The notes below the pieces were generated by a model that was not told where the DNA came from, searched no databases, and saw only the letters and a list, made by a program, of their open reading frames with translations. The position numbers were made by a program, and so were the translations under genes. Shown here piece after piece: positions 14,729 through 36,666 of a stretch of DNA of 64,000 nucleotides (positions within the stretch are counted from its first letter, which is position 1; each line of letters starts with the position of its first letter). The stretch comes from Candidatus Omnitrophota bacterium (GTDB taxonomy: Bacteria > Omnitrophota > Gorgyraeia > Zapsychrales > Fredricksoniimonadaceae). The stretch spans positions 34,189 to 98,188 of the forward strand of contig JAUSEK010000023.1 of assembly GCA_030650275.1 (NCBI GenBank), read 5' to 3'.

Positions 14729-15052
14729 ATGCCCGAACGCCGCCTTTTTGAACGTTTTTGGGCGCGTTATCCCGCCAAATTTAAGGATTCACGCAATGAA
14801 TACGGGACCGATGTTTTTCTAAGGGATGCCTCTGCCGAGGGCGTGCGCATCAACACCCGCGAGCGGATGTTTTTGGATGATCCCGTTACTTTGGAAGTTG
14901 AAGTTCCCGATGGCACCTCGCCGATGGTCCTCTCCGGCAGGGTGAGGTGGACCAGGGCGGCCGGTTCGTCGGCGTGGGATGTCGGCGTGCAATTTCCCCA
15001 GGTGGATTTTATGAAGATGAGCCGCCTTTTTCAACTGACCCTCCAGCCCTAA
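14729..15052 (+). CDS. PilZ-domain protein (second tandem copy)
   Basis: ERRLFER and DASAEGVRI PilZ motifs. Confidence 0.6.
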   Translation: MPERRLFERFWARYPAKFKDSRNEYGTDVFLRDASAEGVRINTRERMFLDDPVTLEVEVPDGTSPMVLSGRVRWTRAAGSSAWDVGVQFPQVDFMKMSRLFQLTLQP

Positions 15053-15060: not shown

Positions 15061-17790
15061 ATGGACGAAAAAGCACTTTATACCTACGGCCCCGACGGGA
15101 TCACGTTTGTTTCCGCGGCCGCGGGGGCGATCAAGACCATTTACGCCCCCCTATGCGGGGCGGACGCCTCCTCTTTGAAATCCGCGATCACGCCCTCTTT
15201 GAGCGGGGACATCAAATTGGATAAATTGCATTATGTCACCAAACCCGCGTCCCGTGAGGACCTGCGCCGGCCGTCGCGCGAATTTTTTGTTTCCGTCAAG
15301 GGCAAAGGGACCTGTTCGCTGGCCAAAGACAGCGCTCCGGATACGGCCACCGTCGCAATCGGACAATTGTGGCACCAGGTGACCCGCCGTCATCCGTCCT
15401 GCGGGCTTAGCCTTGAGGCCGTTCATTTCATTCCCGTCACCGATGAGACGGTTGAGCTCATGCGCGTGACGGTCAAAAACATTTCGCGCAGGAACATCAC
15501 CTTGACCCCCACCGCGGCCATTCCCATTTTCGGCCGTTCTCTGGCCAATAAACACGACCACGAACACGTCACCGCGCTTTTACACCGCATCCAACAGAAC
15601 AAGGACGGGGTGCTGGTCGAGCCCACCATGGTTTTTAATGAAGAAGGCCACGGGCAGGCGCAGTGCGTGTATTTTGTCTACGGCGCCGATGGCGCCGGCG
15701 CGCCCCCATCGGGAACTTTTCCGACGGTAGATACGTTTTTGGGGGATGCCGGCAACCTGGACGCCCCGCAGGCGGTCATGGAAGGCCATCGACCCGTTCA
15801 ATGTTCTGATGAGGCCTTGCAGGGCAAGGAAGCCGTTGGTGCTTTGCGTTTCAAAGAGATCACATTGAAACCCGGAGGGACTAAAGAATATTTCATTGTT
15901 GTGGGACTGGCGCCTGACGCTGCCGGGGCCCGCGCGTTCTTCAAACGTTTCGCCTCTCCCCAAGCGTTCAAAGAGGCCTGGGCGCTCAACAGGAAATTCT
16001 GGGAGGACAAGACCGGCACGATCCGTTTTAAGACCGGCGACGAGGGTTTTAATGCCTGGATGCGCTGGGTCACCCTGCAGCCGATCCTGCGGCGTATTTT
16101 CGGCTGTTCATTTTTGCCTGACCACGATTACGGCAAGGGAGGCAAGGGCTGGCGCGACATCTGGCAGGACCTTTTGTCGCTCATCCTCATCGAGCCCTCC
16201 GCCGTGCGCGGGGCTTTGCTCAACAATTGCGCGGGGATCCGCATTGACGGCAGCAATGCCACCATCATCGGCGCCAAACCCGGGGAATTCATCGCGGACC
16301 GCAATGCCATCACCCGCGTCTGGATGGACCACGGCTGCTGGCCGCTGGTGACCCTGCTTTTGTATATCAACCAAAGCGGCGATTTTGATGTTCTTCTGGA
16401 AAAGGTCCCGTATTTCCGCGACCCGCAAATGTTCAGGACCTTTGAGAAAGACTTAGGCTGGCTGGCGCGCTACGGCCATAAACTGGTGGACAAAAAAGGC
16501 CATACGTACGAAGGCACCGTCCTCGAGCACATTTTGGTGCAGAACCTGACCCAGTTCTTTAACGTCGGGGAACACAATTGCATCCGCCTGGAAAGCGCGG
16601 ACTGGAATGACGGGCTGGACATGGCTTTCGCGCGCGGGGAAAGCGCGGCGTTCACGGCCTTTTACGGCGGCAACCTTTTGAAGATCGCCGACATCATCGA
16701 GGGCCTGGCCGGACATAAAGGCATTGCGGCCGTTGAAGTGGCCAAAGAAATCTTGCTTTTATTGGACACCCTTAGCGGCGATCCCATAAATTACGACCAT
16801 CCCAGGGACAAACATCAGCTGTTGTTCGACCGTTATTTCAGGGCCGTCCAGCCGGCATTGAGCGGGGAAAAAGTGTCCGTCAGCGTCCAGGGCCTTGTCA
16901 AAGACCTGCGCCACAAAGGCCGCTGGCTTTTTTCCCATTTGCGCCATCAGGAGAAAATTACTGTCGAGGATAAGGGCAAGAACTACACCTGGTTCAATGG
17001 GTATTATGACAATCAGGCCCAACGGGTGGAAGGTAAAAAAGACGGCACGGTGCGCATGACTTTGACGGCCCAGGTTTTCGCCATCATGAGCGGCATGGCC
17101 GAGACCAGGGAGATCGAGGACATTATGACAAGTGTTGATCGATTTCTGCGGGATAAGAATTTGGGCGGATACCGTTTGAATACCGATTTCGGCATCCGTC
17201 ATTATCCGGATCTGGGGCGGGCGTTCGCTTTTGCCTACGGCACCAAGGAGAACGGTGCCTTCTTCAGCCACATGACGGTGATGTACGCGTACGCGCTGTA
17301 TGAACGCGGCTTTGCCCGTCAGGGGCACGAAGTGCTGCGTTCGATCACCCGCATGGCCGTCGATGGCAGGCGCAGTAAGATCTATCCGGGCATCCCGGAA
17401 TATTTTGATCCCGAAGGCCGGGGGATGTACCATTATTTGACCGGGTCTGCCAGCTGGTTTGTCCTGACCCAATTGACGCAGGCATTCGGCGTGCGCGGTC
17501 TTCGCGGTGACCTGGCCCTATCTCCGCAATTAGTCAGGGAAGAATTTGACGCGAAGGGCAACGCGTCCGTGACCTGTCCTTTTGCCGGGCACACGATCAC
17601 GGTGCAATACCGTAATCCAAAGAAGCTGGATGCCGGGTCCTATACTATTAAAGAGATCAGCTTTCAGGGAAAGCCCTTAGGCCTTGAACGTTCCCCCCGG
17701 GGGGAGACGCTCATCAGGCGTTCCCGCCTGCGCGCCGACCTTGCATCGGCTAAGCCGCTTGTCCTGGATGTGATGTTGGGAACACGATAA
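15061..17790 (+). CDS. GH94-like (cellobiose/chitobiose phosphorylase-type) glycoside phosphorylase/hydrolase, (alpha/alpha)6 barrel
   Basis: About 909 aa; motif ESADWNDGLD and overall GT36/GH94-like architecture; ATG 15061 (table start 14947 overlaps the PilZ gene). Confidence 0.5.
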   Translation: MDEKALYTYGPDGITFVSAAAGAIKTIYAPLCGADASSLKSAITPSLSGDIKLDKLHYVTKPASREDLRRPSREFFVSVKGKGTCSLAKDSAPDTATVAIGQLWHQVTRRHPSCGLSLEAVHFIPVTDETVELMRVTVKNISRRNITLTPTAAIPIFGRSLANKHDHEHVTALLHRIQQNKDGVLVEPTMVFNEEGHGQAQCVYFVYGADGAGAPPSGTFPTVDTFLGDAGNLDAPQAVMEGHRPVQCSDEALQGKEAVGALRFKEITLKPGGTKEYFIVVGLAPDAAGARAFFKRFASPQAFKEAWALNRKFWEDKTGTIRFKTGDEGFNAWMRWVTLQPILRRIFGCSFLPDHDYGKGGKGWRDIWQDLLSLILIEPSAVRGALLNNCAGIRIDGSNATIIGAKPGEFIADRNAITRVWMDHGCWPLVTLLLYINQSGDFDVLLEKVPYFRDPQMFRTFEKDLGWLARYGHKLVDKKGHTYEGTVLEHILVQNLTQFFNVGEHNCIRLESADWNDGLDMAFARGESAAFTAFYGGNLLKIADIIEGLAGHKGIAAVEVAKEILLLLDTLSGDPINYDHPRDKHQLLFDRYFRAVQPALSGEKVSVSVQGLVKDLRHKGRWLFSHLRHQEKITVEDKGKNYTWFNGYYDNQAQRVEGKKDGTVRMTLTAQVFAIMSGMAETREIEDIMTSVDRFLRDKNLGGYRLNTDFGIRHYPDLGRAFAFAYGTKENGAFFSHMTVMYAYALYERGFARQGHEVLRSITRMAVDGRRSKIYPGIPEYFDPEGRGMYHYLTGSASWFVLTQLTQAFGVRGLRGDLALSPQLVREEFDAKGNASVTCPFAGHTITVQYRNPKKLDAGSYTIKEISFQGKPLGLERSPRGETLIRRSRLRADLASAKPLVLDVMLGTR

Positions 17791-17884: not shown

Positions 17885-19312
17885 ATGGGAAAAGTCCCGG
17901 CGCATTCTCACCACGTCACCGCCCCTGAAGACCGCATTCCATTTTTTCAACAAGCCGCGTACAGCATAGGAGCACTTGTCAACCAGATGCAGGCGGCGGC
18001 TTTGACCGCCATGGTCCTGGTCCTCAATCTTGGTTTGGGGATGGATCCCGCCAAGGTGGGGATCATCGGGACGGTCCCGCGCCTGATCGACGCCTTCACC
18101 GACCCCTTGATCGGTTACACGTCGGACAATACCCGCACGCGGTATGGACGCCGCCGGCCCTTCATGTTATTCGGGGCCGTGATCTCAGGCCTTTTATTCA
18201 TCCTGATGTTCCAGCTGCATAAAGAAAGCCCGGAAAGTTACAGTTTTTGGTATTTTCTGATCATCCAGTGCTTGTATGTGGTCGCCTTCGCCTTCTTCGC
18301 CATTCCCTTTATTGCCTTAGGGTTTGAAATGACCCCTGATTATCACGAACGCACGCGTCTGCAGGGGGCCTGCAACACCATCGGCCAGATCGCCTGGGTC
18401 ATTTCTCCCTGGCTGTTCGCATTCATGTATAGCAGCAAGGACCTCGTGCATGGCGTACGGGTGCTAGCGGTTATTTTTGGCGTCTTCATCATCGCCGGCG
18501 GGCTTTTCCCGGTATTTGTCAACAAAGAGCGTTCTACCCATCTGCCCAGTGTCAAGAAACGCAAGGCGATGGAGGTGATGAAGGATTTCTTCTCCGGCTG
18601 CAAGATCGCCTTCAAGAACCGGCCCTTCGTTCAGCTGTGCACCATTACGTTCCTGGTCTTCAACGGGTTCATGCTGGCTTCCTCGTTCACGGCCTATGTC
18701 ATTTTCTTTTACGTGTTCGGCGGCGATTACGGCAAGGGGGGGCAACTGCTTGGGTGGAACGGGACGGTGGCGGCGGTCGCGAGCTTCTTTGTCATCTTCC
18801 CTTTGATCACGTGGATCGCGACCAGGCTCGGCAAGCGCAACACCCTGCTCATTACTATTCCCTTGTCCATGGTCGGGTACGCCATGAAATGGTGGGGTTA
18901 TAACCCGCAGCATCCCTACCTGCTCTTGGTGGCGGCGCCATTGATCGCCTTCAGTTTGGGGTCGATCTTCACTGTTGTCACCTCCATGCTGGCCGATGTC
19001 TGCGATTTTGACGAACTTGAGAACGGTTCCCGCCGGGAGGGTATTTTCGGCGCCATTTATTGGTGGATGATCAAGCTCGGACAGGCGGCCGCCTCGTTGA
19101 TGTCCGGTTTTCTGCTCAACTGGACGGGCTTCAAGGAATCCTTGCACGGCGCCCAGACCGCGCATACCTTGTTATGGCTGCGGCTTTTTGATATCGGCAT
19201 CCCCATCGCGGCCTCATTGATCGCGATCTATTTTATCGCGACCTTCGAGATCTCCGAGGACAGGGCTTACGATATTCGCAAGCAGCTGGAACAAAGACGG
19301 GGGAAAACGTAG
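17885..19312 (+). CDS. glycoside-pentoside-hexuronide (GPH) family cation symporter (MFS)
   Basis: 12 TM; GPH signature region DPLIGYTSDNTRTRYGRRRPF. Confidence 0.75.
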   Translation: MGKVPAHSHHVTAPEDRIPFFQQAAYSIGALVNQMQAAALTAMVLVLNLGLGMDPAKVGIIGTVPRLIDAFTDPLIGYTSDNTRTRYGRRRPFMLFGAVISGLLFILMFQLHKESPESYSFWYFLIIQCLYVVAFAFFAIPFIALGFEMTPDYHERTRLQGACNTIGQIAWVISPWLFAFMYSSKDLVHGVRVLAVIFGVFIIAGGLFPVFVNKERSTHLPSVKKRKAMEVMKDFFSGCKIAFKNRPFVQLCTITFLVFNGFMLASSFTAYVIFFYVFGGDYGKGGQLLGWNGTVAAVASFFVIFPLITWIATRLGKRNTLLITIPLSMVGYAMKWWGYNPQHPYLLLVAAPLIAFSLGSIFTVVTSMLADVCDFDELENGSRREGIFGAIYWWMIKLGQAAASLMSGFLLNWTGFKESLHGAQTAHTLLWLRLFDIGIPIAASLIAIYFIATFEISEDRAYDIRKQLEQRRGKT

Positions 19313-20607: not shown

Positions 20608-21522
20608 ATGGACCGGAAGTTCAGGAATGCCGCCGTTGCCAGGGACCATTTGGAGAATTTCCTGTTCGTTGTTCCCGCCGTCGCTATTTTCTGCATTTTT
20701 TACATTTACCCGTTTTACAAGATGATCAACCTTTCCTTGTTCGAATGGAAAGGGATCGGCCCCATGCATTTCGTGGGATTGGCCAATTACAAAGAGCTGA
20801 TGGGAGACCATCTCTGGTGGGATTCCATCGGCCACGCCGGATACATCACCCTCATCGCCTTGATCTTCCAGAATCTCCTGGCGTTCGCGCTGGCCTTGGC
20901 CTGCGACCGGGAGATCCGCTTGAAGGGCTTCTACCGCGCGGTCTTCTTCATCCCGCCGGTGCTTTCGGAAGTCGTTGTCGGTCTCATCTGGAACTGGATC
21001 CTCAACCCTCAAATGCAGAACAACCAGCCCGTGGGACTGCTGAATCATTTCCTGTATGCCACGGGTTTCCCCCAGTTGGTGCATAACTGGTTGGGGGACC
21101 CCAAGACGGCCCTGACCACCATCGCCGTCGTCAATGCCTGGAAAGGGTTTGGCTGGGGCTTCATCATGTTCCTGGCCGGCCTGCAGACCATCGACAAACA
21201 GCTCTATGAAGCGGCCAGGGTCGACGGGGCAGGGGCATGGAAAACCTTCACCAACGTGACCGTCCCCATGATGCTGCCGGTGATCCTGGTGGTCGTCATC
21301 CTGACGGTGTTGGGGTGCATGCAGGTCTTTGTCCTTATCCTGGCCTTGGTCAGCGAGGGGCTGGTCAATCACACGGACGTGCCCGTGACGCGCATTTTCT
21401 CGGCGATGCAAAGCACCAACCGCTTTGGCTATGCCTGTGCCGAGGCGGTCATTTTCGGGGCCACCCTCATCTGCATCTCTTTCATCCTGAAAAAACTGGC
21501 GGACAGGACGAGGCAATTGTAG
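20608..21522 (+). CDS. ABC sugar transporter permease (MalF/UgpA-like)
   Basis: ATG 20608 right after SBP stop; EAA-loop region EAARVDGAGAWKTFTNVTVP. Confidence 0.75.
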   Translation: MDRKFRNAAVARDHLENFLFVVPAVAIFCIFYIYPFYKMINLSLFEWKGIGPMHFVGLANYKELMGDHLWWDSIGHAGYITLIALIFQNLLAFALALACDREIRLKGFYRAVFFIPPVLSEVVVGLIWNWILNPQMQNNQPVGLLNHFLYATGFPQLVHNWLGDPKTALTTIAVVNAWKGFGWGFIMFLAGLQTIDKQLYEAARVDGAGAWKTFTNVTVPMMLPVILVVVILTVLGCMQVFVLILALVSEGLVNHTDVPVTRIFSAMQSTNRFGYACAEAVIFGATLICISFILKKLADRTRQL

Positions 21523-21524: not shown

Positions 21525-22370
21525 ATGCGCGTGAACAGATACATCCTCTGGAGAATGACCAAATCGACGTTCATCCACCTTTTCCTGGGCACAGTGACGC
21601 TGGTGTGCCTGTTCCCCCTCTTTTGGATGATACGCTGCTCGCTGATGAGCAATGAGACCATCTTCGTTGACACGGGGCTGCTGCCGCATCACATCAACTT
21701 CGGTAATTTCGCCATCGCGTGGACCAAGGGCCATCTGGCCGGGTTTTTCTTCAACAGCGTCATTTATACGGCCTGCGTCGTCAGTGGCATCGTGCTCATT
21801 TCTTCGCTCGCGGCTTTTGCCTTTTCGCGGCTGGAATTCCCGGGCAAGAACGTCCTGTTCTACCTGTTCGTTGCGGCCATGATGATCCCTTTGCCGGGAA
21901 GCTTCGTGGCGTTGTTCGTGCTGATGGCCAAACTGCACCTGGTCAATACCCGTATCGGCTATATCCTGTGCATGATCAACGTCGGGCTGTCCATGAGCAT
22001 TCTTTTATTGAAAACATTTTTTGACAAGATGCCCCGTGACCTGGAAGACGCAGCCCGCATCGACGGCTGCTCCAAACTGGGGATCTGGTGGAACGTGGCC
22101 CTGCCCCTGGCCCGGCCGGCCATTGCGGTCATTGTGATCTTCAATTCACTGACCGTCTGGAATGAATATATCCTGGCAACCCTGCTGTTGGGGGACACCA
22201 GCCTCATGCCCTTGCAACGGGGGCTGATGGTTTTTCAGGGAGCCAACAGCGTTGATTACCCGGTCTTGATGGCCGGCCTCACCATGGCGGCAGTGCCTAT
22301 TGTTATGGTATACTTGGCCATGCAGAAACATATTATCAAAGGCCTGTCTTCGGGAGCTGTGGTCGGTTAG
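21525..22370 (+). CDS. ABC sugar transporter permease (MalG/UgpE-like)
   Basis: ATG 21525; EAA motif EDAARIDGCSKLGIWWNVALP. Confidence 0.75.
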   Translation: MRVNRYILWRMTKSTFIHLFLGTVTLVCLFPLFWMIRCSLMSNETIFVDTGLLPHHINFGNFAIAWTKGHLAGFFFNSVIYTACVVSGIVLISSLAAFAFSRLEFPGKNVLFYLFVAAMMIPLPGSFVALFVLMAKLHLVNTRIGYILCMINVGLSMSILLLKTFFDKMPRDLEDAARIDGCSKLGIWWNVALPLARPAIAVIVIFNSLTVWNEYILATLLLGDTSLMPLQRGLMVFQGANSVDYPVLMAGLTMAAVPIVMVYLAMQKHIIKGLSSGAVVG

Positions 22371-22374: not shown

Positions 22375-24705
22375 ATGGGGACACAATACTTAATTCAACA
22401 CAACACTTCATCAGGAATTAAGCATTATGTCCCCATAATTTTGCTGTCTGTTTTTCTTGCATCATGGGGTTTTTGTGCCTTTGCCGAGGACGTTCCTGCC
22501 GCCACATCCTCTGAAGAGCTCGTCCGCCTGTCCTGGAAGGCCTCCAACGAGGGGAATATCGACGCCCTCAACAAACTTTACGACGTAATGATCGCCGCCT
22601 ACGATGCCGAGGCCCGCCTGCAGGCGGGCCGTTTGACCGGTTTCCCCCCACGGGACCAGGCTGAAAGTTATCGCATCATGGACGATGTGGCCACCGTCAT
22701 GTTCATCAAGGCCGAGACCTTGATGCACCAAGGCAAGAATGACGAGGCCAAGGTCCTCTTTGAGCAGGTCAGCGCGCAATACCCGTGGGCCCAGAGTTGG
22801 GACCCCAGCCGCGGTTCATTCTGGTCGGTCAAAGAAAAAGCCCAGGCGAGCATCAAGACCATGTCCGGCCAGGCCCCGGACCAGGAAGCGGCTGTTGAGC
22901 GCAAAGTCCCGCGCACGGTCCCTCATCTTGCTTTCCCGGGCAAACGGGTCGTGGATTATCTGAAGTACGGCCGTTTCCTTAATGCCGGCACAAAAGGTTA
23001 TCATTATCAGGTCACGGACCCAAAAGGGCTTAAGGCCGCCGCCGGAGAAGCTATTTATCCCAACCTCACGGACATGTATCGGGACCCCGCGTACAAAAAG
23101 GCCTTGCAGGAAGGCCGGCTGGAGGGCAGCCACTGGGATTTCGTCAATACCGATGACATGCAAGCCGCTATTTTCAAATGGGCCACGGCCCCGGAACCCT
23201 GGGGCACGCGGCTTTTTTATATGGGCGTCATTTTTGAAAAGGCCAAAATGTATCATGAGGCCATCAAGGCCTACCACGCCGTTGTCGTGTTCTTTCCAGA
23301 GACGGTTGCATGGACATATTGGCAAACTCCCTGGTATCCGGGCCAGGCCGCCGTCGCCAAGATCCAGTATATTATCCGCACGCATCCGGAATTAAAACTG
23401 GAATTCAAGGGGGCGAAAATTCAGATCCTGAATTCTTTTGACAATGACCCGAAAAACGACGTGACCATGACCAGTCCCGGGACCGTCACCAGGGCCAGCA
23501 CGAAATTACGCGTGGAACAGATGCAAGTCCCGTTGGGCGAACCGGTCAAGACCGTTGGCACAGGCCTGGTGCAGCTGGTCAAATATTCAAGCGGTCCCTG
23601 GCAGATGACCGTTGACGGCAAGCCGTTCTTGATCAAAGGCATGAGCTATATGCCCAACAAGGTCGGCCAGAGCCCGGACAAGGGCACCCTGACCAATTGG
23701 ATGGAACAGGACGAGAATGCCAACGGGCTCATCGACGCCCCTGATGAGGCGTGGGTGGACAAGAACCACAACGATCAGCAGGACCCTGATGAGCCGTCCG
23801 TCGGTGATTTTGCTTTGATGAAAGACGTGGGCGTCAATACCATCCGCTTGTACCATCACCCCATGAAACCCAACAAAGCGCTCCTGGAAAAAATGTTCAA
23901 GGACCACGGGTTGATGGTCGTCCTGGGGGATTTCATCGGCAAATACGCCATCGGGTCCGGAGCATCCTGGTCGGAGGGGACCGATTATGAAAATCCAGAG
24001 CATCTCAAGGCCATGATGGACAGCGTCCGGCAGATGGTCATGGAATACAAGGACGAGCCGTACATTTTGATGTGGATCTTAGGCAATGAGAACAATTACG
24101 GGGTCGCGTCCAATGCCGACAAAAAACCGGACGCGTATTACAAATTCGTCAATGAACTCGCGCTTATGATCAAGTCCATGGACCCCGATCATCCGGTTGC
24201 CCTGTGCAACGGGGACACTCTGTATCTGGATAAGTTCGCCCAATTCGCGCCGGACGTGGACATTTATGCCGGCAACGTGTATCGGGGCGATTACGGGTTT
24301 GGGTCATTCTGGCAGCAGGTGGCCGAGGTCGCGGACAAGCCGGCGTTCATTTCCGAATACGGTGCCCCGGCCTTTGCTCCGCCCATGTCTTATGAAGAGG
24401 CCCAGCAGGCCCAGGCCGATTATCACCGCGGCAACTGGTTAGACATCCAATACAACAGCGCCGGTTACGGGGACGGAGCAGGTAATGCCATCGGCGGCAT
24501 TGCCTTTGAGTGGCTGGATGAATGGTGGAAGAATTATGAACCATCCATCCACGACACCAAGGCCGATGTGGTGGGGCCTTTCGCGGGCGGGTATTATTAT
24601 GAGGAATGGTTCGGTATTTTCGGCCAGGGGGACGGCAAAAGCAGCCCTTTTCTGCGCGAACCCAGAAAGGTTCACAATACTTATAAGGAACTTTGGAAAA
24701 ACTGA
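22375..24705 (+). CDS. secreted clan GH-A TIM-barrel glycoside hydrolase (GH2/GH5-like) with N-terminal WDPxGxFW helical domain
   Basis: Signal peptide IILLSVFLASWGFCAFA; catalytic-looking ILGNENNY (acid/base) and ISEYGAP (nucleophile) motifs; N-terminal domain homologous to repeats of 28447..29310. Confidence 0.6.
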   Translation: MGTQYLIQHNTSSGIKHYVPIILLSVFLASWGFCAFAEDVPAATSSEELVRLSWKASNEGNIDALNKLYDVMIAAYDAEARLQAGRLTGFPPRDQAESYRIMDDVATVMFIKAETLMHQGKNDEAKVLFEQVSAQYPWAQSWDPSRGSFWSVKEKAQASIKTMSGQAPDQEAAVERKVPRTVPHLAFPGKRVVDYLKYGRFLNAGTKGYHYQVTDPKGLKAAAGEAIYPNLTDMYRDPAYKKALQEGRLEGSHWDFVNTDDMQAAIFKWATAPEPWGTRLFYMGVIFEKAKMYHEAIKAYHAVVVFFPETVAWTYWQTPWYPGQAAVAKIQYIIRTHPELKLEFKGAKIQILNSFDNDPKNDVTMTSPGTVTRASTKLRVEQMQVPLGEPVKTVGTGLVQLVKYSSGPWQMTVDGKPFLIKGMSYMPNKVGQSPDKGTLTNWMEQDENANGLIDAPDEAWVDKNHNDQQDPDEPSVGDFALMKDVGVNTIRLYHHPMKPNKALLEKMFKDHGLMVVLGDFIGKYAIGSGASWSEGTDYENPEHLKAMMDSVRQMVMEYKDEPYILMWILGNENNYGVASNADKKPDAYYKFVNELALMIKSMDPDHPVALCNGDTLYLDKFAQFAPDVDIYAGNVYRGDYGFGSFWQQVAEVADKPAFISEYGAPAFAPPMSYEEAQQAQADYHRGNWLDIQYNSAGYGDGAGNAIGGIAFEWLDEWWKNYEPSIHDTKADVVGPFAGGYYYEEWFGIFGQGDGKSSPFLREPRKVHNTYKELWKN

Positions 24706-24845
24706 ATACCCCGCATTTTTGACCTTCCATAGGAATAATTTCAGAAATATTTTTTAATTTAGTCGTAACTAATTGATATTAATATTGTTACGTCATTTCC
24801 TTTTATTTGCACATTCCCCAAAAGCATGTTATCTTTGAACGTTAT

Positions 24846-24863
24846 CCGGGAAACGTTTCCCGG
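24846..24863 (+). promoter_or_regulatory. perfect 18-bp palindrome CCGGGAAACGTTTCCCGG (LacI/PurR-type operator-like, central AAACGTTT)
   Basis: Read directly; lies between AT-rich promoter region and ATG 24919. Confidence 0.45.
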
Positions 24864-24870
24864 CCCAAAG

Positions 24871-24900
24871 GATGTCATTCCCGCGTAGGCGGGAATCCAG
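24871..24900 (+). repeat. hairpin repeat family copy 1 (GATGTCATTCCCGC-GTAG-GCGGGAATCCAG)
   Basis: 8-bp stem ATTCCCGC/GCGGGAAT with conserved flanks; recurs at 25884 and 52266. Confidence 0.7.
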
Positions 24901-24918
24901 AACATAGAGATTAAATCA

Positions 24919-27900
24919 ATGTTTAAAAAATCCCTGAGCATTGCCCTCATTGTTGCTTTTTTCCTGACCTCCCTGGGGCCTATTCCCAAAGCTCATGCCG
25001 ACGTCCTTAATCTTCCCATCCCCGGCACCATGGTCAACTTAAGTCCTGCCTATGAGCCGGTGATGATCAAGGGCTTGACCGTCCACAAAGACAATCCCTT
25101 TTTGTTTGACTTTATCGTGGATGTGGGTGATTCAGGATTGTCCGTAGGGAACGCAGATCTGCGTTCCCTACAAGATGAATCAACCAAATTAATCAAATAT
25201 TTCCTTGCTTCTTTAGCCATTCCTGAAAAAGACCTTTGGGTCAACTTATCTCCATATGAGAAAGACCGCACCATCCCCGAAGAACTCTCCAAGACCGACA
25301 TGGGCCGTGACCTATTAGCCCAGGACTATATCCTCAAACAGATCACCGCCTCACTCATTTATCCTGAAAAGGCCTTAGGAAAAACATTCTGGGACAAGGT
25401 CTATACCAAAGCCCAACAACTCTACGGCACCACAGAAGTTCCCGTCAACACCTTCAACAAGGTCTGGATCATGGCAGACAAGGCAGAGGTGTTTGAACGC
25501 AACAACACCGCATTCGTTACCGACAGCCATCTTAAAGTAATGTTGGAAGAGGATTACCTGGCCCTTGAGCATCAAGGGCGGGTCCTGCAAAGCCACGATG
25601 GAACCCGGCCTGCTCACCAGCTCGCAGGCGCGCTAAGCGGTCCGGCTTATTCGCCGGACCAGCGCCCCGCACCACGCATGGATGCCCACACTCTGGCAAG
25701 CGACATCGTGCGTCAAATAATCCTCCCCGAACTAGAAAAAGAAGTCAACACCGGCAAGAACTTCGCTAATCTTCGTCAAATATTCAACTCCCTCATCCTT
25801 GCCTCCTGGTACAAGAAAAACCTCAAAGAAGCCCTCCTTAACCAGGTTTATTCCAATCAATCAAAGGTCAAAGGCATAGAAAGGGATGTCATTCCCGCGA
25901 AAGCGGGAATCCAATCCAAGGACGATGTGGAAGCCATCTACAACCAGTACCTTGCCGCCTACAAGAAGGGCGTGTTCAATTACATCAAAGAGGACATAGA
26001 CAAAGCCAAAGGCACGACGATACCGAGGAAGTATTTTTCGGGTGGGATGCAGATAGCTCCGCATGATGTGGCCATGACAACCGATCCGCAGAAACTGGCC
26101 AACGCCTTGCCAAAAGACAGGGCCCTGGTGTCTTTTCAAACAGGGATGATGGACCATGTTGTGGCTGTGACGCCGACACCAGACCGGGCGATGATAAACG
26201 AGATGCCGGAGAAGTTACGGGGAATATTTTTTTTCACGGACAAGGGGGCGGTCTTAAGATTGCCCCATTGGGAAAGGTTCGTCAGGGATGTTCCTGTCAA
26301 AGAAATTGATGAAATCATTGATTTTTTGGCCCCCATAATGAGGGAAAATGATTCTTACGCTTCCATAATGAGGAAAAGGCTCTCATCATCGGTGGAAGAA
26401 AGACCCAAAAGACCTTCCGGATCTCAGGAGGCTACTATTAAGAGAGTCATACTTTTATTGGCTGCGCAAGGATATTACTTCCCTGTTGGGAGCGAAAACA
26501 GTAAAGAGCCTTTTTCTGTTATGGAGATAACTTTCGACTCCGGGGCACGTAACTATTATTTGACGCTTAATGATGCGGACGGAAAACCCAGGGAAGATTT
26601 AACAGCGCAGGAGAGGTCAAGATTGATAGGGAATGTACGAACCGCGTTAAGGCTCTTTAAAAGAGATCTTGGTGAAGCAACGTCGCTTCAGGGTAAGGAA
26701 GCGTCACGCCGATCCGATGCCCCGGACCGGGCGATGACGGCGAGGCCGGCCGCATTGGTTCAGATACCGGTAGAAATACAATTATGGATCAATGTATCGG
26801 CTGGCAGCGCCAGGCCTGAAAAATGGATTCCATCGGAAACGGTTGTGGCGGAAATGACCGACATGATTGAAGGCGTTTCACCCCAAAGGTCCGAATCAGG
26901 AAGGATCCGTGCCTGGGTGGACCGTACAAAAGAAAAACTCAGTCAAGAAAAACGCGATCCATTAATAGGGTTGAGAGAAGCGATTTCCATGACTGGATCT
27001 TCGCCGGACCAGCCCATATCCAGCAAATTGAGATCCACGGTCAAAAGACGAGTTTTTCTTCATGTCTCGTCCATTCCCGGGGATGAGCGGACTTCGCCTG
27101 AAACCGTTATTGCCGTCATCAATGAGATGATCAGCAAACAGGTTCCTCTTATGGATGAAACGTCAGATTCGATTCGGCAGTGGGTGAGGTCGCAACAACA
27201 AAGATATCCCGGTGATCAAGAAGAACAACTTGTGCAATTGCGGGAAGGTATTACCCGTGCTGTCGCAGCCGCCGCCCCGGACCGGGCGATGGTGGGCAAG
27301 CCACGGACATTGGATGGAATGATGGATCTTGAAGTTGCACGCATGGTGGTACGAATCAAGCGGTCTATGGAGCTCGTAGAAAGAACAATGGAGAGCGCAG
27401 GCAGGATTGTGCGGTGGTATTCCACAAATAAAAGCGGGTTGACCCCGCAAAGCATAGGAAGCCTTCAGGAGGCGCACACAATATTAGAGTATTATTTGGC
27501 TATATGGAAAATAGATTTAGAAAAATTGGAAACTGTTTTTACGGGTTCTTCCCCGGAAGATTATCAGACCATTGCACCGGCCCTACGCGCCGATATCCGG
27601 CAGGCGAGATCATTAATAGAGAGAATAGCATCCTTACTTCCCAGAGAAAGCGCTGTAGCACCGGACCAGGCGATGATGGGACCGAACCAGCCCAGGTCGC
27701 AGAGCGAAGCCTTGAACATGGCCCTTCAAATCCTGGATCATATTACTGGCACGGATTATCAAAATGCCAAGAGGATTCTTTTTGAAAAGATCCTTGAATT
27801 AAAATTTGGGGCGTTCGGTGAGGCAGTGGTTATCAAGGACCCGCAGCACATCCTTCCTTTATTTGAACTGACCAGAATAGATCCGCCCAGGGCCGAGATC

Positions 27901-28359
27901 ATGGAGGGGCTGGCGGACCTGATCAGTGATGGCATCCTTGATCCCGAGGCTGTGCGTGACATTGTGACCATGGAGGATATCAGGCACTACCGGCGGATAA
28001 ACGCCATGCAAATAGAAACAATAGGGGCAGGGTCACCGGCGGGAGATCTTATACATGCGTTGGAGATATTTGTCGGCGTGGTCACAGATGACAGCGTGTC
28101 CGGCGCCAAAGGCCCGGACCAGGCGATGGCGGCCAAGGGTGGTATTGACCTGAACGCCGGAAACATGAAGTGGAGCGTCCGTAAGGATGGGAGCGGTGTT
28201 GAGATGAAGGTTGACCCGGCCCTGATCGAGCGCATCAAACGCGAAGGCATTGACAGTTTGACGCCGGTGATCTTTCGCGTCACGCCGGTGGTGAGTATTT
28301 GGCCTTTGGTTGGTTTAGATCCGCCCAAAAAGGAAGAAGAGCGTTTGGTCGGGGTGTAA
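24919..28359 (+). CDS. 1146-aa secreted protein with seven reiterated [AP]PD[RQ]AM motifs; no recognised catalytic domain
   Basis: Signal peptide then long ORF with strong coding periodicity; repeated DNA core CCGGACCGGGCGATG / CCGGACCAGGCGATG at 25641, 26175, 26716, 27001, 27285, 27661, 28117. Confidence 0.6.
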   Translation: MFKKSLSIALIVAFFLTSLGPIPKAHADVLNLPIPGTMVNLSPAYEPVMIKGLTVHKDNPFLFDFIVDVGDSGLSVGNADLRSLQDESTKLIKYFLASLAIPEKDLWVNLSPYEKDRTIPEELSKTDMGRDLLAQDYILKQITASLIYPEKALGKTFWDKVYTKAQQLYGTTEVPVNTFNKVWIMADKAEVFERNNTAFVTDSHLKVMLEEDYLALEHQGRVLQSHDGTRPAHQLAGALSGPAYSPDQRPAPRMDAHTLASDIVRQIILPELEKEVNTGKNFANLRQIFNSLILASWYKKNLKEALLNQVYSNQSKVKGIERDVIPAKAGIQSKDDVEAIYNQYLAAYKKGVFNYIKEDIDKAKGTTIPRKYFSGGMQIAPHDVAMTTDPQKLANALPKDRALVSFQTGMMDHVVAVTPTPDRAMINEMPEKLRGIFFFTDKGAVLRLPHWERFVRDVPVKEIDEIIDFLAPIMRENDSYASIMRKRLSSSVEERPKRPSGSQEATIKRVILLLAAQGYYFPVGSENSKEPFSVMEITFDSGARNYYLTLNDADGKPREDLTAQERSRLIGNVRTALRLFKRDLGEATSLQGKEASRRSDAPDRAMTARPAALVQIPVEIQLWINVSAGSARPEKWIPSETVVAEMTDMIEGVSPQRSESGRIRAWVDRTKEKLSQEKRDPLIGLREAISMTGSSPDQPISSKLRSTVKRRVFLHVSSIPGDERTSPETVIAVINEMISKQVPLMDETSDSIRQWVRSQQQRYPGDQEEQLVQLREGITRAVAAAAPDRAMVGKPRTLDGMMDLEVARMVVRIKRSMELVERTMESAGRIVRWYSTNKSGLTPQSIGSLQEAHTILEYYLAIWKIDLEKLETVFTGSSPEDYQTIAPALRADIRQARSLIERIASLLPRESAVAPDQAMMGPNQPRSQSEALNMALQILDHITGTDYQNAKRILFEKILELKFGAFGEAVVIKDPQHILPLFELTRIDPPRAEIMEGLADLISDGILDPEAVRDIVTMEDIRHYRRINAMQIETIGAGSPAGDLIHALEIFVGVVTDDSVSGAKGPDQAMAAKGGIDLNAGNMKWSVRKDGSGVEMKVDPALIERIKREGIDSLTPVIFRVTPVVSIWPLVGLDPPKKEEERLVGV
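25884..25913 (+). repeat. hairpin repeat family copy 2, in-frame inside the 1146-aa gene (encodes ...RDVIPAKAGIQ...)
   Basis: GGATGTCATTCCCGC-GAAA-GCGGGAATCCA, near-identical to copy 1 except loop. Confidence 0.7.
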
Positions 28360-28446
28360 CGCGTCGGGCTTGCCGAATCCGGAAAGATGTATTATACTTC
28401 TAGGGTGTAAGTTCAGTTTGAATAACAATCAAGATGGAGGTTGGAT

Positions 28447-29310
28447 ATGAAGAAGTTAGGTTTAACGGTTTTATTGTTGAGTGCTGTTTGTGCCGGCGCC
28501 TTGCCGGTTTGGTCAGCAGAGGCCTATAATTTCGGTGATTACCGTTCGGTCACCCTGATCTCCAAAGCGTGGCCGGCGCTGGAAAAAGGCGACATTGAGG
28601 CGGTGTTGGCCTACACCAACAAATGCATTGAGCTGTACGCACAGCAGGCCCGCCAGATGCAAGCCGGGCTGAAAGATTATGTCACGGGGCCCACCAAGGA
28701 CGACACTTTCAATTTGTGGGCGCTCAATGACGTGGCCGCCGCTTATTACATCCAGGGCGAGGCCTACCGCAGGGCCAACATGAAAGCCGAATCCAAAGAG
28801 GCCTTCAGCAAATTGATCAATGAATATTCTTTCGGGCAGGTCTGGGACCCCAAGGGTTGGTTCTGGAAACCCGCCGAGGCCGCCAAGGAAAAGATCGCCA
28901 TGGCCGAGGCCGGCGTGAACGTGGATTTCGGTGATTATACGTCCGCCCAGTTGACGTTAAAAGCATGGACCGCTCTGGCCGCCAATGACCTCAACGCGGT
29001 CGTGATCTATACGAACAAGGTCCTGGAACTTTATGCGCCCAAGGCCAAGGAGATGCAGGCCTCTTTGAAAGAATATGCCTGGGAAAGCAAAGAGAGCACC
29101 TTCAGTTATTGGGCGCTTAATGACGTCGGGACCGCTTTGTTCATCCAGGGCGAGGCCTACCGTAGCGCCGGCAAGAAAAAGGAAGCCGCCGAGGCCTACA
29201 AGAAGGTCATCAACGAGTATTTTTACGCCCAGTGCTGGGACCCGGCTGGCTGGTTCTGGAAACCCGCCGAAGTTGCCCAACAGAAGTTAAGTGAATTGGA
29301 TAATGTTTAG
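28447..29310 (+). CDS. secreted protein made of two tandem ~125-aa WDPxGWFWKPAE-domain repeats
   Basis: SD GGAGG 8 nt upstream of ATG 28447; signal peptide; internal duplication (NFGDYRSVTL...WDPKGWFWKPAEAA and DFGDYTSAQL...WDPAGWFWKPAEVA). Confidence 0.65.
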   Translation: MKKLGLTVLLLSAVCAGALPVWSAEAYNFGDYRSVTLISKAWPALEKGDIEAVLAYTNKCIELYAQQARQMQAGLKDYVTGPTKDDTFNLWALNDVAAAYYIQGEAYRRANMKAESKEAFSKLINEYSFGQVWDPKGWFWKPAEAAKEKIAMAEAGVNVDFGDYTSAQLTLKAWTALAANDLNAVVIYTNKVLELYAPKAKEMQASLKEYAWESKESTFSYWALNDVGTALFIQGEAYRSAGKKKEAAEAYKKVINEYFYAQCWDPAGWFWKPAEVAQQKLSELDNV

Positions 29311-29905
29311 GATTTTTGTTCTGGTTTTATTGACCGGCGTTCCCCTTTTGGCTTTGGCCAAAGATCAGGGGGACGCCGTTGCTTTTGTCCCTTTCATCGT
29401 CTACCGCGACAATGCTTCGCCCAACCGCTATATTTCGTCTGGTTACATGCCGACCGGCGAATGCATCAAGCAGGATAATGCGTATACCCAAAATTGCGCC
29501 GAGGGCAAGAGCTGCATCAAGGTCGTTTACGACACGGCCTGTTCGGCCAAAAGCCGGCGCTGGGCCGGGGTGTACTGGCTCAACCCGGCCGACAATTGGG
29601 GCGAGCGCAAAGGCGGGTATGATCTCAACGGGGCCAGGAAACTCGTGTTCTGGGCCAAAGGGGAAAAGGGCGGGGAAGAGATCGCCGAGTTCAAGATCGG
29701 CGGTGTCGGCTCCAGCCGCGAATTCCCCGACACCGATGCCGCCTCCATCGGCCCGGTCATCCTCTCCAAGGACTGGCGGGAGTATTCTATCGATTTGCGC
29801 GGCAAGGACTTATCCTCTATCATCGGCGGTTTCGCGTGGATCGCCAGTGTCGACGCCAACCCCGGACCCTGCACCTTCTTTCTCGACAACATCCGTTTTG
29901 AATAA
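29303..29905 (+). CDS. secreted beta-sandwich protein, carbohydrate-binding-module-like
   Basis: ATG 29303 overlaps upstream stop; signal peptide; CBM-like segments (AGVYWLNPADNWGERKGGYDLNGARKLVFWAKG, DWREYSIDLRG, TFFLDNIRFE). Confidence 0.45.
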   Translation: MFRIFVLVLLTGVPLLALAKDQGDAVAFVPFIVYRDNASPNRYISSGYMPTGECIKQDNAYTQNCAEGKSCIKVVYDTACSAKSRRWAGVYWLNPADNWGERKGGYDLNGARKLVFWAKGEKGGEEIAEFKIGGVGSSREFPDTDAASIGPVILSKDWREYSIDLRGKDLSSIIGGFAWIASVDANPGPCTFFLDNIRFE

Positions 29906-29990: not shown

Positions 29991-31238
29991 ATGTCCCAGG
30001 CCGTCCGCCGTGGCATTATTTTACTTGCCGCTTTGTTGCTTGTCCTCGCCGTGATCTCCGTCGCTATTTTTACCCAGAAAAGGTCCCTGGAAGAGCAGAA
30101 CCGGAACCTGCAGGCCCAGCTGACCGAATACCAGAATAAAGAAAGCCAGCTGCTGGCCAAAACCAAGAAATTGCAGGACGACAGCAAGGCCATGAACGAC
30201 CGCGTCGCGCAGAAGGACAAGGAGAAGGCCGAAGTCCAGGGCATATATGACGAGCTCAAGTCCAAGTATGACGCCGTCGACGGGCAGATGGCGCAGGTCG
30301 CCCGCGAGCGCGACGATTGGAAAAGCCGTCTGGAGACCACCCGCCGCGAGCGCGACGAGTTGATGAAAAAACTGCGCAACCAGCCCGAAAAGATCGTCTA
30401 TAAAGAACGCGAGCCGGCCGCGGTTGCCGCGCCGCAGGGGGAAGGTTACTGGGCCCAGGTCCTTAAGGAAAAGGCCGTGCTGCAGCTGGAACTGGAGAAG
30501 GTCAAGTCCGACCTCGACCAGAGCGTCCTGGAGATCGTGGACTTAAAGAAGAAGAATTCCGACATGCAGTTGGAGATCAAGACCATTCAAAACGAAAAAG
30601 AAGAGATCGTCCGCAAGATCAAATACGGCGAGGACCTCGCCAACAACCTTTCCGTTGAGGTGGCCCGCGCCCGCAATGACCAGAAGATGACCAATGAGCG
30701 CGCCGATAAATTAAAAGATCAGAATCAGCAATTGCAGGACCAGATCAAACAATTGACCACGACCAAGGTGGCTTTGGAAAGAAGCCTCACGCGCCTGAGC
30801 GAAGACAAAGACAAAATGGGTAAGAAGCTCACCCAGACGGAAAGCGTCATCCAGGGCCGCATCGACGAGATCTGGCAGATCAAGCAGAACCTTGACCAGA
30901 AGATCACCGACCTTCCCATAAAACCTTCACCGACTGAAGTGGAATTGTCTCCGATCATTGTCAATGCCGTTCCGGTGGGCCCTGCCCCCGCTGTTGGTCC
31001 CGCGGCGGCCGCCCCTAGGGAAAAACAGCACACCGTCATCAGCATCAATGAGACCAATAATTTTGTCATTGTTGACCTTGGTGAGGCCGACGGCAGCCGG
31101 GTCGGACAGGCATTGAAGGTGTATCGCGGCGGCAATGACATCGCCTCCCTGGAAGTCATTCAGGTCCGCAAAGATATTTCCGCCGCAGACATCAAGAACA
31201 AGTCCGTGCAGCTGAAGGTCGGAGACATTGTCCGCTAA
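29991..31238 (+). CDS. membrane-anchored long coiled-coil protein with C-terminal beta domain
   Basis: N-terminal TM helix, about 270 aa of heptad-rich coiled coil, then a Pro/Ala linker. Confidence 0.5.
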   Translation: MSQAVRRGIILLAALLLVLAVISVAIFTQKRSLEEQNRNLQAQLTEYQNKESQLLAKTKKLQDDSKAMNDRVAQKDKEKAEVQGIYDELKSKYDAVDGQMAQVARERDDWKSRLETTRRERDELMKKLRNQPEKIVYKEREPAAVAAPQGEGYWAQVLKEKAVLQLELEKVKSDLDQSVLEIVDLKKKNSDMQLEIKTIQNEKEEIVRKIKYGEDLANNLSVEVARARNDQKMTNERADKLKDQNQQLQDQIKQLTTTKVALERSLTRLSEDKDKMGKKLTQTESVIQGRIDEIWQIKQNLDQKITDLPIKPSPTEVELSPIIVNAVPVGPAPAVGPAAAAPREKQHTVISINETNNFVIVDLGEADGSRVGQALKVYRGGNDIASLEVIQVRKDISAADIKNKSVQLKVGDIVR

Positions 31239-31284: not shown

Positions 31285-31289
31285 AATTG

Positions 31290-32300
31290 ATGAACACTCC
31301 AAAAAAGATCAGCATTGTGGACGTGGCCCGCCGCGCGAAGGTTTCCATCACCACGGTTTCGCGCGTCCTGAATAAATTTCCCACCGTCAACAAAGACATC
31401 GCCGCGCGCGTCCAGGAAGCCATCGGTTTCCTGAAATTCAAACCGAATCCGACGGCCCAGCGTTTGGCCAAGGGCGGGGCCAACACCGCGGTGGGGTTTG
31501 TCATCCCGGGATTTCCCGGCATTTTCCATTCCTTTTACGCGGTGGAACTCATGCGCGGCATCGGCCACGGCTGTGAGACCCTGCGCCTCGACCTCATCTT
31601 TCACATCACCGACGGACACAATCCCTTAAAATCCAATTATGCCGGCGGGCTTATTTTCGCCGACATCATCGAGAACCGTTCCCAGGTCGAGGAGGCCCTC
31701 TCCCAGGGGGTCCCGTGCCTGGTCATCAATCACATGGTCAAGGACCTGGAGGTCAGTTACATCGCGGTGGACAACGTCAAGGGCGGGGCCATGGCCGCGG
31801 AATACCTTATCAATCTGGGACATAAGCGCATCGCGACCGTGACGGGCAATATCCAGACCCAGGCGGGCATTGACCGTTTGGAGGGTTTCCAGAAGGCCCT
31901 GATGAAAAAAGACATCGCGCTTGATCCGAAATATGTTTTTAAAGGCGATTATTCCCGCCGCTCGGCCCGCACGGCCGGCGAACGTTTTTTTGCCCTGGAT
32001 GATCCTCCCACGGCCGTTTTCGCCGCCAGCGACGATATGGCCCTTGAGATCATCTCCGTGGCCATGGAACACGGCATCAAGGTCCCCGAAGACATTTCCG
32101 TCGTCGGTTTTGATGACAACCCCGCGGGTCTTTTCGGCCCGGTTTCGCTGACGACCATCAAACAGCCGCTGTTTGCCATGGGGGAAGAAGCGGTTAAAGT
32201 CCTCTACGACATCATGCAGGGCAGGCAGGAAGGCCTTGTCCGCAAGGTCCTGATCCCCGAACTCATCGTGCGCGAATCCTGCGGCGCCCCCTCGTCATAA
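31290..32300 (+). CDS. LacI-family transcriptional regulator
   Basis: N-terminal HTH VSITTVSRVLN; periplasmic-binding-like effector domain. Confidence 0.8.
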   Translation: MNTPKKISIVDVARRAKVSITTVSRVLNKFPTVNKDIAARVQEAIGFLKFKPNPTAQRLAKGGANTAVGFVIPGFPGIFHSFYAVELMRGIGHGCETLRLDLIFHITDGHNPLKSNYAGGLIFADIIENRSQVEEALSQGVPCLVINHMVKDLEVSYIAVDNVKGGAMAAEYLINLGHKRIATVTGNIQTQAGIDRLEGFQKALMKKDIALDPKYVFKGDYSRRSARTAGERFFALDDPPTAVFAASDDMALEIISVAMEHGIKVPEDISVVGFDDNPAGLFGPVSLTTIKQPLFAMGEEAVKVLYDIMQGRQEGLVRKVLIPELIVRESCGAPSS

Positions 32301-36239: not shown

Positions 36240-36419
36240 AGCGCCGGGGTCAACGATGCGTTCGTTGTGGGAGTCCTGGATCTCTTCGTCCCATATTTTG
36301 AAATGGGCGTTGATGGAGCGAAGGACATACGGGCCCATGACCACGATCCCCAGGATGACCAAAAGGACGATGAGGGAATATTCGATCAAGGATTGGCCGT
36401 GCCGATGATGTGCGCGCAT
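36213..36419 (-). CDS. Flp-family (type IVb) pilin-like small protein
   Basis: 68 aa from ATG 36419; Flp motif GQSLIEYSLIVLLVILGIVVMG; overlaps 3' end of MOT1 gene; no tad locus nearby. Confidence 0.35.
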   Translation of the reverse strand: MRAHHRHGQSLIEYSLIVLLVILGIVVMGPYVLRSINAHFKIWDEEIQDSHNERIVDPGALSVPGPGS

Positions 36420-36666
36420 GGTGAAAGTATATACCACATGTCCGCTCCCGGCAAGCGCGATCCTTGACACCCGAATACCGTATCGTTTTATTTCCATTTC
36501 AAAGAAAACTACCCATAGGGCATAAATGTAAAAATAGAAATATACCCCCATATGGGGCTTTCGCTATATTGGGTGAGCTGCGGCTTATTTTCTATTGACA
36601 AAGGGAGAAGATGTGATAAATTGGTCATGTAAAAAAAGTGTATGAGAGTTATTCTAAAGATAACCT

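Follow-up and report, generated by a model that had tools for sequence, protein, structure and literature searches.

The 64-kb stretch of Omnitrophota DNA analysed here (the window) contains a sugar-utilisation operon, in which a secreted glycosidase and a secreted partner protein share a domain of ~125-130 residues, called the WDP domain below. This unit is a putatively extracytoplasmic module derived from the tetratricopeptide repeat (TPR); at its N-terminus are two helices specific to the family, followed by one canonical TPR, a hairpin with the signature Q-x-W-D-P-x-G-W-F-W, and a capping helix. The domain recurs in a large family of proteins, and is repeatedly fused to, or encoded next to, enzymes of glycoside hydrolase family 158 (GH158) type. 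We consider it very probable that WDP forms a domain family of its own, linked in function to β-glucan systems of GH158 type. The fuller statement, that WDP is a non-catalytic accessory module of GH158-type β-1,3-glucanase systems and works by binding or holding β-glucan, has in our judgment about an even chance of being correct in all its parts, the binding mechanism included. The fold class is known; new are the family itself, hitherto unnamed, and its specific association with GH158-type enzymes, hitherto undescribed. Compared with a preliminary description of the same DNA, the analysis adds a fourth copy of the domain, an operon conserved across the phylum, a specific link to β-1,3-glucan, and evidence of domain fusion and fission from other phyla.

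The WDP domain: copies, conservation and fold

The preliminary description had placed three copies of the domain in two secreted proteins; they are indeed found there, and the sequence strings that it quoted are present (Table 1). Its claim that the N-terminal domain of the glycosidase aligns with both tandem repeats of the partner is borne out by similarity far beyond chance (31% and 27% identity to repeats 1 and 2, BLASTP E 2e-13 and 3e-13, respectively, composition-adjusted), and the two partner repeats are 56% identical to each other (E 5e-51). Aligned together, the three copies are identical in 23 columns, among them W..A, Y, A, DV, and Q-x-W-D-P-x-x-G-x-F-W. The partner is 287 aa long counted from its ATG, not 289, the latter figure resulting from an upstream TTG at 28441. 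The elements NDV and QGEAY, reported as shared positions, are present in both partner repeats, but the glycosidase of the window has DDV and KAETL instead; most of its orthologues do carry NDV. The number of copies, three if only full ones are counted, rises to four with a degenerate half-copy in the glycosidase, which matches the domain profile with hhalign probability of 91% (E 9e-7). Pfam models TPR_2/TPR_1 match the half-copy at aa 280-308, strands 312-313 and 319-320 of the AlphaFold2 model make up its hairpin, and in three orthologues of the glycosidase this region is significant even with a plain hidden Markov model (HMM). No further full copy was detected when all six frames of the window were scanned with an HMM.

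We compared a domain profile, built from 52 diverse copies, to 1.84 billion cluster representatives (50% identity), and found 1,448 matches at E<=1e-3, 953 at E<=1e-10, and 208 at E<=1e-30. There are between one and seven WDP copies per protein, and the best 150 matches hold 267 copies, over which conservation was computed, the representatives being at most 50% identical. The best-preserved positions are N67 (93%), A44 (92%), A89 (90%), the L-N-D-V-x-T block (81-93%), and W18 (84%); in the hairpin they are W113 (85%), D107 (82%), G110 (81%), Q104 (73%), and W106 (73%). We regard the WDP unit as a distinct family, and not just any TPR, because the hairpin and the LNDV block are conserved at 73-93% and because the selectivity of the profile is high, much above what would be expected of an ordinary TPR profile. 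The HMM search had been set beforehand as the test of whether the motif is specifically conserved, and with the hairpin preserved over 267 copies the notion of a distinct domain withstood it. The domain was also said to be previously unnamed, and in agreement with this neither Pfam-A (2025) nor NCBIfam (2026) has a dedicated model for it, the generic TPR_6 being the only one that applies. Named homologues are almost all annotated as "tetratricopeptide repeat protein" or "hypothetical", and nearly all belong to Candidatus Omnitrophota; members from elsewhere occur in a Victivallales metagenome-assembled genome (MAG) and, within a giant protein, in a MAG binned as Parcubacteria. Sharp boundaries, the variable number of copies, and several domain architectures show that the module behaves as a mobile unit.

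WDP modules are also seen inside giant or very long proteins (P0328 of 5953 aa, P0298, P0381, and P0327). One giant protein, from the Parcubacteria-binned MAG, is annotated as UTP-glucose-1-phosphate uridylyltransferase. These proteins may bear on the giant surface proteins discussed for Omnitrophota.

Structure prediction with AlphaFold2, which had been proposed as a check, gave a confident model of the partner, in which each unit is helical with a hairpin (two helix pairs, a β-hairpin, and a cap helix). The order of elements in a partner unit is a helix, a long helix, a short helix, the TPR helix pair, a two-stranded hairpin (VWD and WFW), and the capping helix. In repeat 1, the helices span residues 34-46, 50-73, 84-88, 91-109, and 113-126, the hairpin is formed by 132-134 and 138-140, and the cap helix by 142-154; the modelled topology of repeat 2 is the same. 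The N-terminal domain of the glycosidase has helices 46-58, 62-85, 93-118, and 122-135, hairpin 140-143/148-151, and cap helix 152-163, and shares the topology of the partner units.

The relationship of this unit to TPR is evident at the sequence level in one motif per unit, which is detected by Pfam TPR_6 (32.0 bits in the glycosidase and 40.8 bits in the partner, vs cut-off of 26.3). No tandem array of at least three canonical TPRs forming a superhelix was found; each unit has a single canonical motif by sequence. When the profile of 52 copies was run against all PDB sequences, known TPRs were matched only over positions ~68-101, i.e., ~34 positions of 129, and nothing in that set matched the N-terminal 65 positions or the hairpin with the cap. 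A search of PDB sequences with the partner protein gave no match at E<=1, and neither did the Sel1 model of Pfam. Three-dimensional comparison shows that the fold superposes on solved TPR domains, the closest being the periplasmic TPRs of YbgF/CpoB and BamD; Foldseek with the whole two-domain partner model returned only weak generic TPR matches (best E 6e-3). Thus the suggestion of a new, distinct domain holds for the specifically conserved elaboration, while the underlying fold is TPR-derived and belongs to a known class. YbgF/CpoB (PDB structure: 2xev; Pfam TPR_6; TIGR02795) is similar to the WDP module in its periplasmic-type TPR fold, but the WDP proteins score 20.4 and 18.4 bits on TIGR02795, vs equivalog cut-off of 90.1, lack the N-terminal trimerising coiled coil, and are found not in the Tol-Pal context but among sugar-utilisation genes. 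Neither YbgF/CpoB nor any other solved sequence has a counterpart of the WDPxGWFW hairpin or of the N-terminal FGDY...KAW helices.

Association with GH158-type enzymes

In the glycosidase of the window, the WDP domain, a conserved insert with the half-copy, and a β-sandwich are followed by a catalytic triose-phosphate isomerase (TIM) barrel of clan GH-A. The protein is matched by Pfam Glyco_hydro_2_C (7.7e-16) and was modelled with a predicted local distance difference test (pLDDT) score of 82. Its best match among PDB sequences is GH158 enzyme 9oro (E 1.4e-13, over ~130 residues only), and the best Foldseek matches are likewise in GH158 (9p26, E 5.8e-12; BuGH158 6pal, E 1.4e-9; identity 18-21%), with GH2 glucuronidases and GH72 β-1,3-glucanosyltransferases being the next solved relatives of the catalytic domain. 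The catalytic pair of clan GH-A, i.e., the Asn-Glu acid/base on strand 4 and the Glu nucleophile on strand 7, is present: N571-E572 (in GNEN) and E661 (in SEYG) align to GNE and TEFG of GH158, and are invariant in 55 orthologues. The β-sandwich precedes the barrel, which ends the protein, and no C-terminal immunoglobulin-like domain follows it in the AlphaFold2 model. Because of the ~20% identity and the different domain order, we describe this protein as a putative GH158-like retaining glycosidase, and do not file it as a member of GH158. The endo-β-1,3-glucanases of that family (BuGH158, 6pal; GH158(Pro), 9oro, PMC13195107) are nevertheless the nearest solved relatives of its catalytic domain, with both catalytic glutamates kept, whereas the low identity over ~130 residues, the position of the β-sandwich, and an orthologous group of its own set it apart. 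The 120 closest orthologues form a tight group (56-86% identity), and every one of them has the WDP module at the N-terminus.

The partner protein is encoded in a conserved operon. One genome per species was scanned for its relatives, 269 of which were found, and gene order was derived from the 80 loci retained, with 8-kb flanks. All 80 are from Omnitrophota MAGs, some of them deposited as "uncultured Planctomycetales". The conserved order is laminaribiose phosphorylase, ATP-binding cassette (ABC) importer, glycosidase, two-repeat WDP protein, 204-aa protein, coiled-coil protein, LacI, and mnmG. The partner occurs in every one of them, since the loci were selected by its presence; 78 loci have the glycosidase, 76 the 204-aa protein, 66 the coiled-coil protein, 61-63 the permeases, 61 LacI, 60 mnmG, and 58 the substrate-binding protein (SBP) of the importer; for the phosphorylase, the count of 32 is limited by the length of the flank. 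In 68 of 80 loci, an open reading frame (ORF) containing a single WDP copy has as its immediate downstream neighbour an ORF containing two or three. The 204-aa gene follows the two-repeat gene even in loci that have no glycosidase. A gene of the major facilitator superfamily (MFS; 17 loci) and a gene for a 1146-aa protein (2 loci) are variable insertions. A 145-kb contig from the Joint Genome Institute (JGI) has the matching order from mnmE to mnmG, and the placement of the sugar operon between these two genes recurs across Omnitrophota genomes.

The idea of a coherent glycan module, put forward in the preliminary description, is supported by this strong synteny, and may be sharpened to utilisation of β-1,3-glucan, apparently conserved across Omnitrophota. 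The assignment to β-1,3-glucan is made because there is an orthologue of laminaribiose phosphorylase in the locus and because the structures nearest to the enzyme are from GH158. The phosphorylase is a full-length match to the characterised enzyme 6ggy (residues 27-892 vs 28-895).

A variant locus (L062, 7974-16860) has the two-repeat and the 204-aa proteins followed by proteins of 718, 917, and 412 aa and a coiled-coil protein, in place of the GH158-like enzyme and LacI. The N-terminus of the 718-aa protein looks GH116-like by eye, and the 412-aa protein is possibly a ROK-type regulator.

The same association is seen, with fully separate genes, outside Omnitrophota. In Victivallales contigs with GC content of 33%, the gene of a true GH158 enzyme with no WDP domain (E 9.5e-81 to GH158(Pro) 9oro, full length; 1.2e-62 to BuGH158) is directly followed by that of a secreted single-domain WDP protein. 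The latter shares 55% identity with repeat 2 of the partner in the window, which suggests transfer between phyla. The Victivallales locus (L084 4405-13294, and L085) also encodes GH149 β-1,3-oligoglucan phosphorylase (E 2.9e-297 to 6hq6), GH81, two prepilin-like (N_methyl) proteins, and a sugar-sensing regulator of GntR/periplasmic-binding-protein type. Two contigs with 65% GC have the reversed order, with a WDP gene, then GH158 (60-64% identity to its Victivallales counterpart), then ExbB/ExbD. Elsewhere, the gene immediately downstream of a single-domain WDP gene encodes a 764-aa protein orthologous to the fused glycosidase; a paralogue without the N-terminal domain is encoded in the same locus. 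Another single-domain WDP gene is one gene away from GH30. Enzymes of β-glucan metabolism are neighbours in five of nine independent single-domain contexts. Fusions extend the list: in P0298, four WDP copies come after a GH158-like domain, in P0289, two copies precede a BcsA-like processive glucan synthase, in P0264, four copies are found along with chitobiase-type and fibronectin type III-associated domains, and P0327 has two copies and RHS repeats.

The two 65%-GC contigs (L088 4308-11644 and L090 2421-10422; phylum unknown) share a block in which a secreted protein of 516-570 aa, WDP, GH158, ExbB, ExbD, ExbD, and a protein of 625-652 aa are encoded; in L090, the gene for the 516-570-aa protein and the WDP gene are separated by that of an esterase, encoded on the opposite strand. 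The block may point to TonB-energised uptake linked to the pair of WDP and GH158.

Possible roles of the WDP module

The strongest functional evidence is the association with particular genes. We favour a glucan-binding role because the module occurs on either side of a catalytic domain, is repeated up to seven times, and is encoded beside enzymes that do not have it; and also because the partner repeats consist of aromatic residues by 15%, with the Trp-rich hairpin being the most conserved segment. The site of action is predicted to be extracytoplasmic, and an extracellular and a periplasmic location are both compatible with the data. We propose that the aromatic-rich modules would bind or hold β-glucan chains, the copy within the glycosidase targeting the enzyme to the polymer, while the partner, with its two or three WDP units, and the 204-aa (lipo)protein would jointly keep the polymer at the cell envelope. 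The lipoprotein SBP and the ABC importer would take up the freed β-1,3-oligosaccharides, to be cleaved in the cytoplasm by laminaribiose phosphorylase, under LacI control.

Such an arrangement would resemble, in role, the β(1,3)-glucan loci of Bacteroidota, where SusD-like and surface glycan-binding proteins (SGBPs) accompany BuGH158 (Dejean et al. 2020, PMC7157763): in both cases, a non-catalytic protein is encoded beside a GH158-type enzyme in a dedicated locus with a transporter and a regulator. The WDP proteins, however, match no SusD or SGBP model in Pfam, are much smaller, modular, and repeated, and are only putative glycan binders, and the Omnitrophota locus has an ABC importer and no SusC-type TonB-dependent transporter. 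The known carbohydrate-binding modules (CBMs) for β-1,3-glucan are similar to WDP in that they are modular, often repeated, appended to glucanases or encoded beside them, and rich in aromatic residues; almost all CBMs, however, are β-sandwich or β-rich, whereas WDP is helical, and no Pfam CBM model matches it. SusD, too, is built on TPR units as a scaffold. A bolder version of the favoured reading would make WDP a new all-helical, TPR-based carbohydrate-binding family specific for β-1,3-glucans, with the multi-copy proteins and the 204-aa lipoprotein as a counterpart of SusD/SGBP in Omnitrophota and the PVC (Planctomycetes-Verrucomicrobia-Chlamydiae) group, and glucan scavenging as a core trait of the whole phylum. 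We put this forward tentatively, as something that has somewhat better than one chance in three, and thus is doubtful as a whole.

Several points weigh against glucan binding. The tryptophans of the hairpin may equally be structural, packing it onto the helices instead of being exposed. TPR domains usually mediate protein-protein contacts, and YbgF/CpoB, the closest solved fold, does so. Four paralogous genes for two-repeat proteins have no glycosidase within 8 kb, and four of the nine single-domain contexts are unrelated to glycans (Pst/Pho; HipAB; extracytoplasmic function (ECF) sigma factor with a von Willebrand factor type A (VWA) protein; VirB type IV secretion system). At ~20% identity to GH158, the window enzyme is too distant for its substrate to be fixed, and the nearest solved relatives of the SBP bind maltose, chitin oligosaccharides, or β-1,2-oligosaccharides.

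The best of the rival explanations, a serious one although we think it rather unlikely, is a protein-protein scaffold, in which WDP would bring the glycosidase together with the 204-aa and coiled-coil proteins in a complex at the envelope, or would dock to another WDP, with no contact to glycan. This would suit the resemblance to the periplasmic TPRs of YbgF/CpoB and BamD and the TPR_6 matches, as well as the overlap of the partner and 204-aa genes, the company of partner, 204-aa, and coiled-coil proteins in 66-76 of 80 loci, even where there is no glycosidase, and the occurrence of single-domain WDP genes in non-glycan contexts. Fusions at the N-terminus, at the C-terminus, and to a glucan synthase, however, make a pattern typical of substrate-binding modules. 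Homotypic docking of WDP in the enzyme to WDP in the partner was rejected as a general mechanism, since true GH158 enzymes without the domain still adjoin a WDP protein, in either gene order.

A second alternative, which appears improbable, is that the locus processes an endogenous glucan, such as a periplasmic or coat polymer, with the WDP-TPR units guiding the polymer and modulating the hydrolase in the manner of TPRs of PgaA, PelB, BcsC, and AlgK. The operon is near-universal in Omnitrophota, with its fixed place between mnmE and mnmG, two PilZ proteins of cyclic di-GMP (c-di-GMP) type are encoded at its head, and in one protein of the family the module is joined to a BcsA-like synthase, all of which would agree with an endogenous polymer; moreover, the TPR domain of PgaA is reported to bind poly-N-acetylglucosamine (PNAG) and to modulate the hydrolase PgaB (PMC9384988). 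But there is neither synthase nor exporter in the locus, the importer, disaccharide phosphorylase, and LacI make up a classical catabolic layout, and the corresponding Victivallales locus, with GH158, GH81, and GH149, is plainly degradative. The synthase-dependent exopolysaccharide systems (PMC9384988) share with WDP the use of periplasmic TPR modules that work with a glycoside hydrolase, the one in PgaA binding the polymer, but their TPRs are long superhelical arrays on an outer-membrane porin, whereas WDP units are discrete, have ~125 residues and the hairpin, and belong to a catabolic operon without synthase or porin.

It is much less probable still that WDP proteins, when free, serve GH158-type enzymes as inhibitors, chaperones, or secretion pilots. 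TPR chaperones exist in secretion systems, and the WDP genes are tightly adjacent to those of GH158, in either order; permanent N-terminal fusion in all 120 orthologues and arrays of up to seven copies fit such roles poorly. The least credible view, that of an ordinary TPR stretch duplicated by chance and carrying a meaningless motif, is contradicted by 73-93% conservation over 267 diverged copies and by the selectivity of the profile, and also by the resemblance to known TPRs being confined to about a quarter of the positions (~34 of 129) in a mobile, sharply bounded unit present in one to seven copies.

In a full-text literature search, no paper was found in which both GH158 and tetratricopeptide repeats are mentioned, and none that links Omnitrophota with laminaribiose phosphorylase or describes this operon; overview papers on Omnitrophota do not discuss the locus. 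GH158 is a recently founded and sparsely characterised family of β-1,3-glucanases, and we know of no accessory domain tied to it. If the module does bind glucan, a helical, TPR-based type would be added to the carbohydrate-binding modules, and ~1,450 clusters labelled only as "TPR repeat protein" would gain a handle for annotation. The metabolism of Omnitrophota, which are uncultured, is debated, the opinions being divided between free-living fermenters and predators or parasites. A phylum-wide operon for laminaribiose phosphorylase, an ABC importer, a GH158-like enzyme, and three exported proteins of unknown function makes feeding on β-1,3-glucan by these bacteria a directly testable hypothesis. 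Were the carbohydrate-binding reading true, glucan scavenging would be a core trait of the ultra-small, supposedly host-dependent Omnitrophota.

Other genes of the locus

Genes between ~14.3 and 32.3 kb of the window are all encoded on the + strand, and the junctions between them are short or overlap (Table 1). Within 12098-34184, the whole sugar operon lies between mnmE upstream and, downstream of the LacI gene, mnmG.

Table 1. Genes and domains of the sugar operon in the 64-kb window
Feature	Position (nt)	Strand	Basis and remarks
Two small PilZ-domain proteins, operon head	14304-14708 and 14729-15052	+	Pfam PilZ recorded at the equivalent position of the related 145-kb contig
GH94 laminaribiose phosphorylase orthologue, cytoplasmic	15061..17790	+	Pfam GH94; phmmer vs PDB 6ggy, E 1.1e-274
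MFS_2 (GPH-type) sugar transporter	17885..19312	+	Pfam MFS_2, 1.4e-70; variable member
Sugar ABC importer: lipoprotein SBP; two permeases	19314-20606; ~20608-21522 and ~21525-22370	+	Pfam SBP_bac_1; ORFs
Secreted glycosidase, 776 aa	22375..24705	+	Signal peptide, WDP domain, conserved insert and half-copy, β-sandwich, clan GH-A TIM barrel
WDP copy 1, glycosidase aa ~45-165	22507..22869	+	Motif WDPSRGSFW, W142-W150, nt 22798-22824; HMM 156 bits
Degenerate WDP half-copy, glycosidase aa ~249-334	23119..23376	+	One TPR pair, hairpin WTYWQTPWYP, cap helix
β-sandwich before barrel, glycosidase aa 342-424	23398..23646	+	AlphaFold2 secondary structure
Clan GH-A (β/α)8 catalytic domain, GH158-like, glycosidase aa ~478-776	23806..24702	+	Pfam, PDB search, Foldseek
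Secreted protein, 1146 aa	24919..28359	+	Between glycosidase and partner genes; lineage-specific, outside the conserved module
Secreted partner, 287 aa, two WDP domains	28447..29310	+	AlphaFold2 pLDDT 90, predicted template modelling score (pTM) 0.79
WDP copy 2, partner repeat 1, aa 27-155	28525..28911	+	Hairpin nt 28843-28866; HMM 170 bits
WDP copy 3, partner repeat 2, aa 158-287	28918..29307	+	Hairpin nt 29236-29259; HMM 173 bits
Exported protein, 204 aa, unknown family	29291..29905	+	Start overlaps the stop codon of the partner gene
Protein of 415 aa, N-terminal membrane anchor and long coiled coil	29991..31238	+	Coiled-coil-type matches only (Pfam, NCBIfam)
LacI-family regulator	31287..32300	+	Pfam LacI and Peripla_BP_3

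The 204-aa protein, described earlier as CBM-like, received no support for this label from Pfam or PDB searches: its profile has no match in PDB at E<=10, and Pfam yields nothing consistent over 48 orthologues. The family is highly conserved, with a domain of ~165 residues, four conserved cysteines, and motifs AGIYW, NWG, GGFNL, and CTFYLDxIxYE; more than half of the orthologues have a lipobox.

Gene order suggests that the operon may be under LacI control. The canonical LacI operator TGNNANCGNTNNCA matches the window once, at 40933; this site is outside the locus, and a single match does not exceed the chance expectation.

PilZ genes were seen in 7 of 80 loci, a figure limited by the 8-kb flank. 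The tandem PilZ pair (putative c-di-GMP receptors) is unusual company for a catabolic locus, and the same is seen in related contigs.

The 1146-aa protein has no match in Pfam or NCBIfam, and its relatives are confined to two of the 80 loci (L019 and L030); GC content of its gene is 0.495, vs ~0.55 in the flanks. Five spaced (A/G)PD(R/Q)AM motifs are found in it, at aa 421, 602, 787, 915, and 1066, with no internal repeat detectable around them. Further along the window, GC content falls to 0.44-0.48 at 36001-38000 and 52001-58000, compared to ~0.55 elsewhere, and these segments may be acquired islands.

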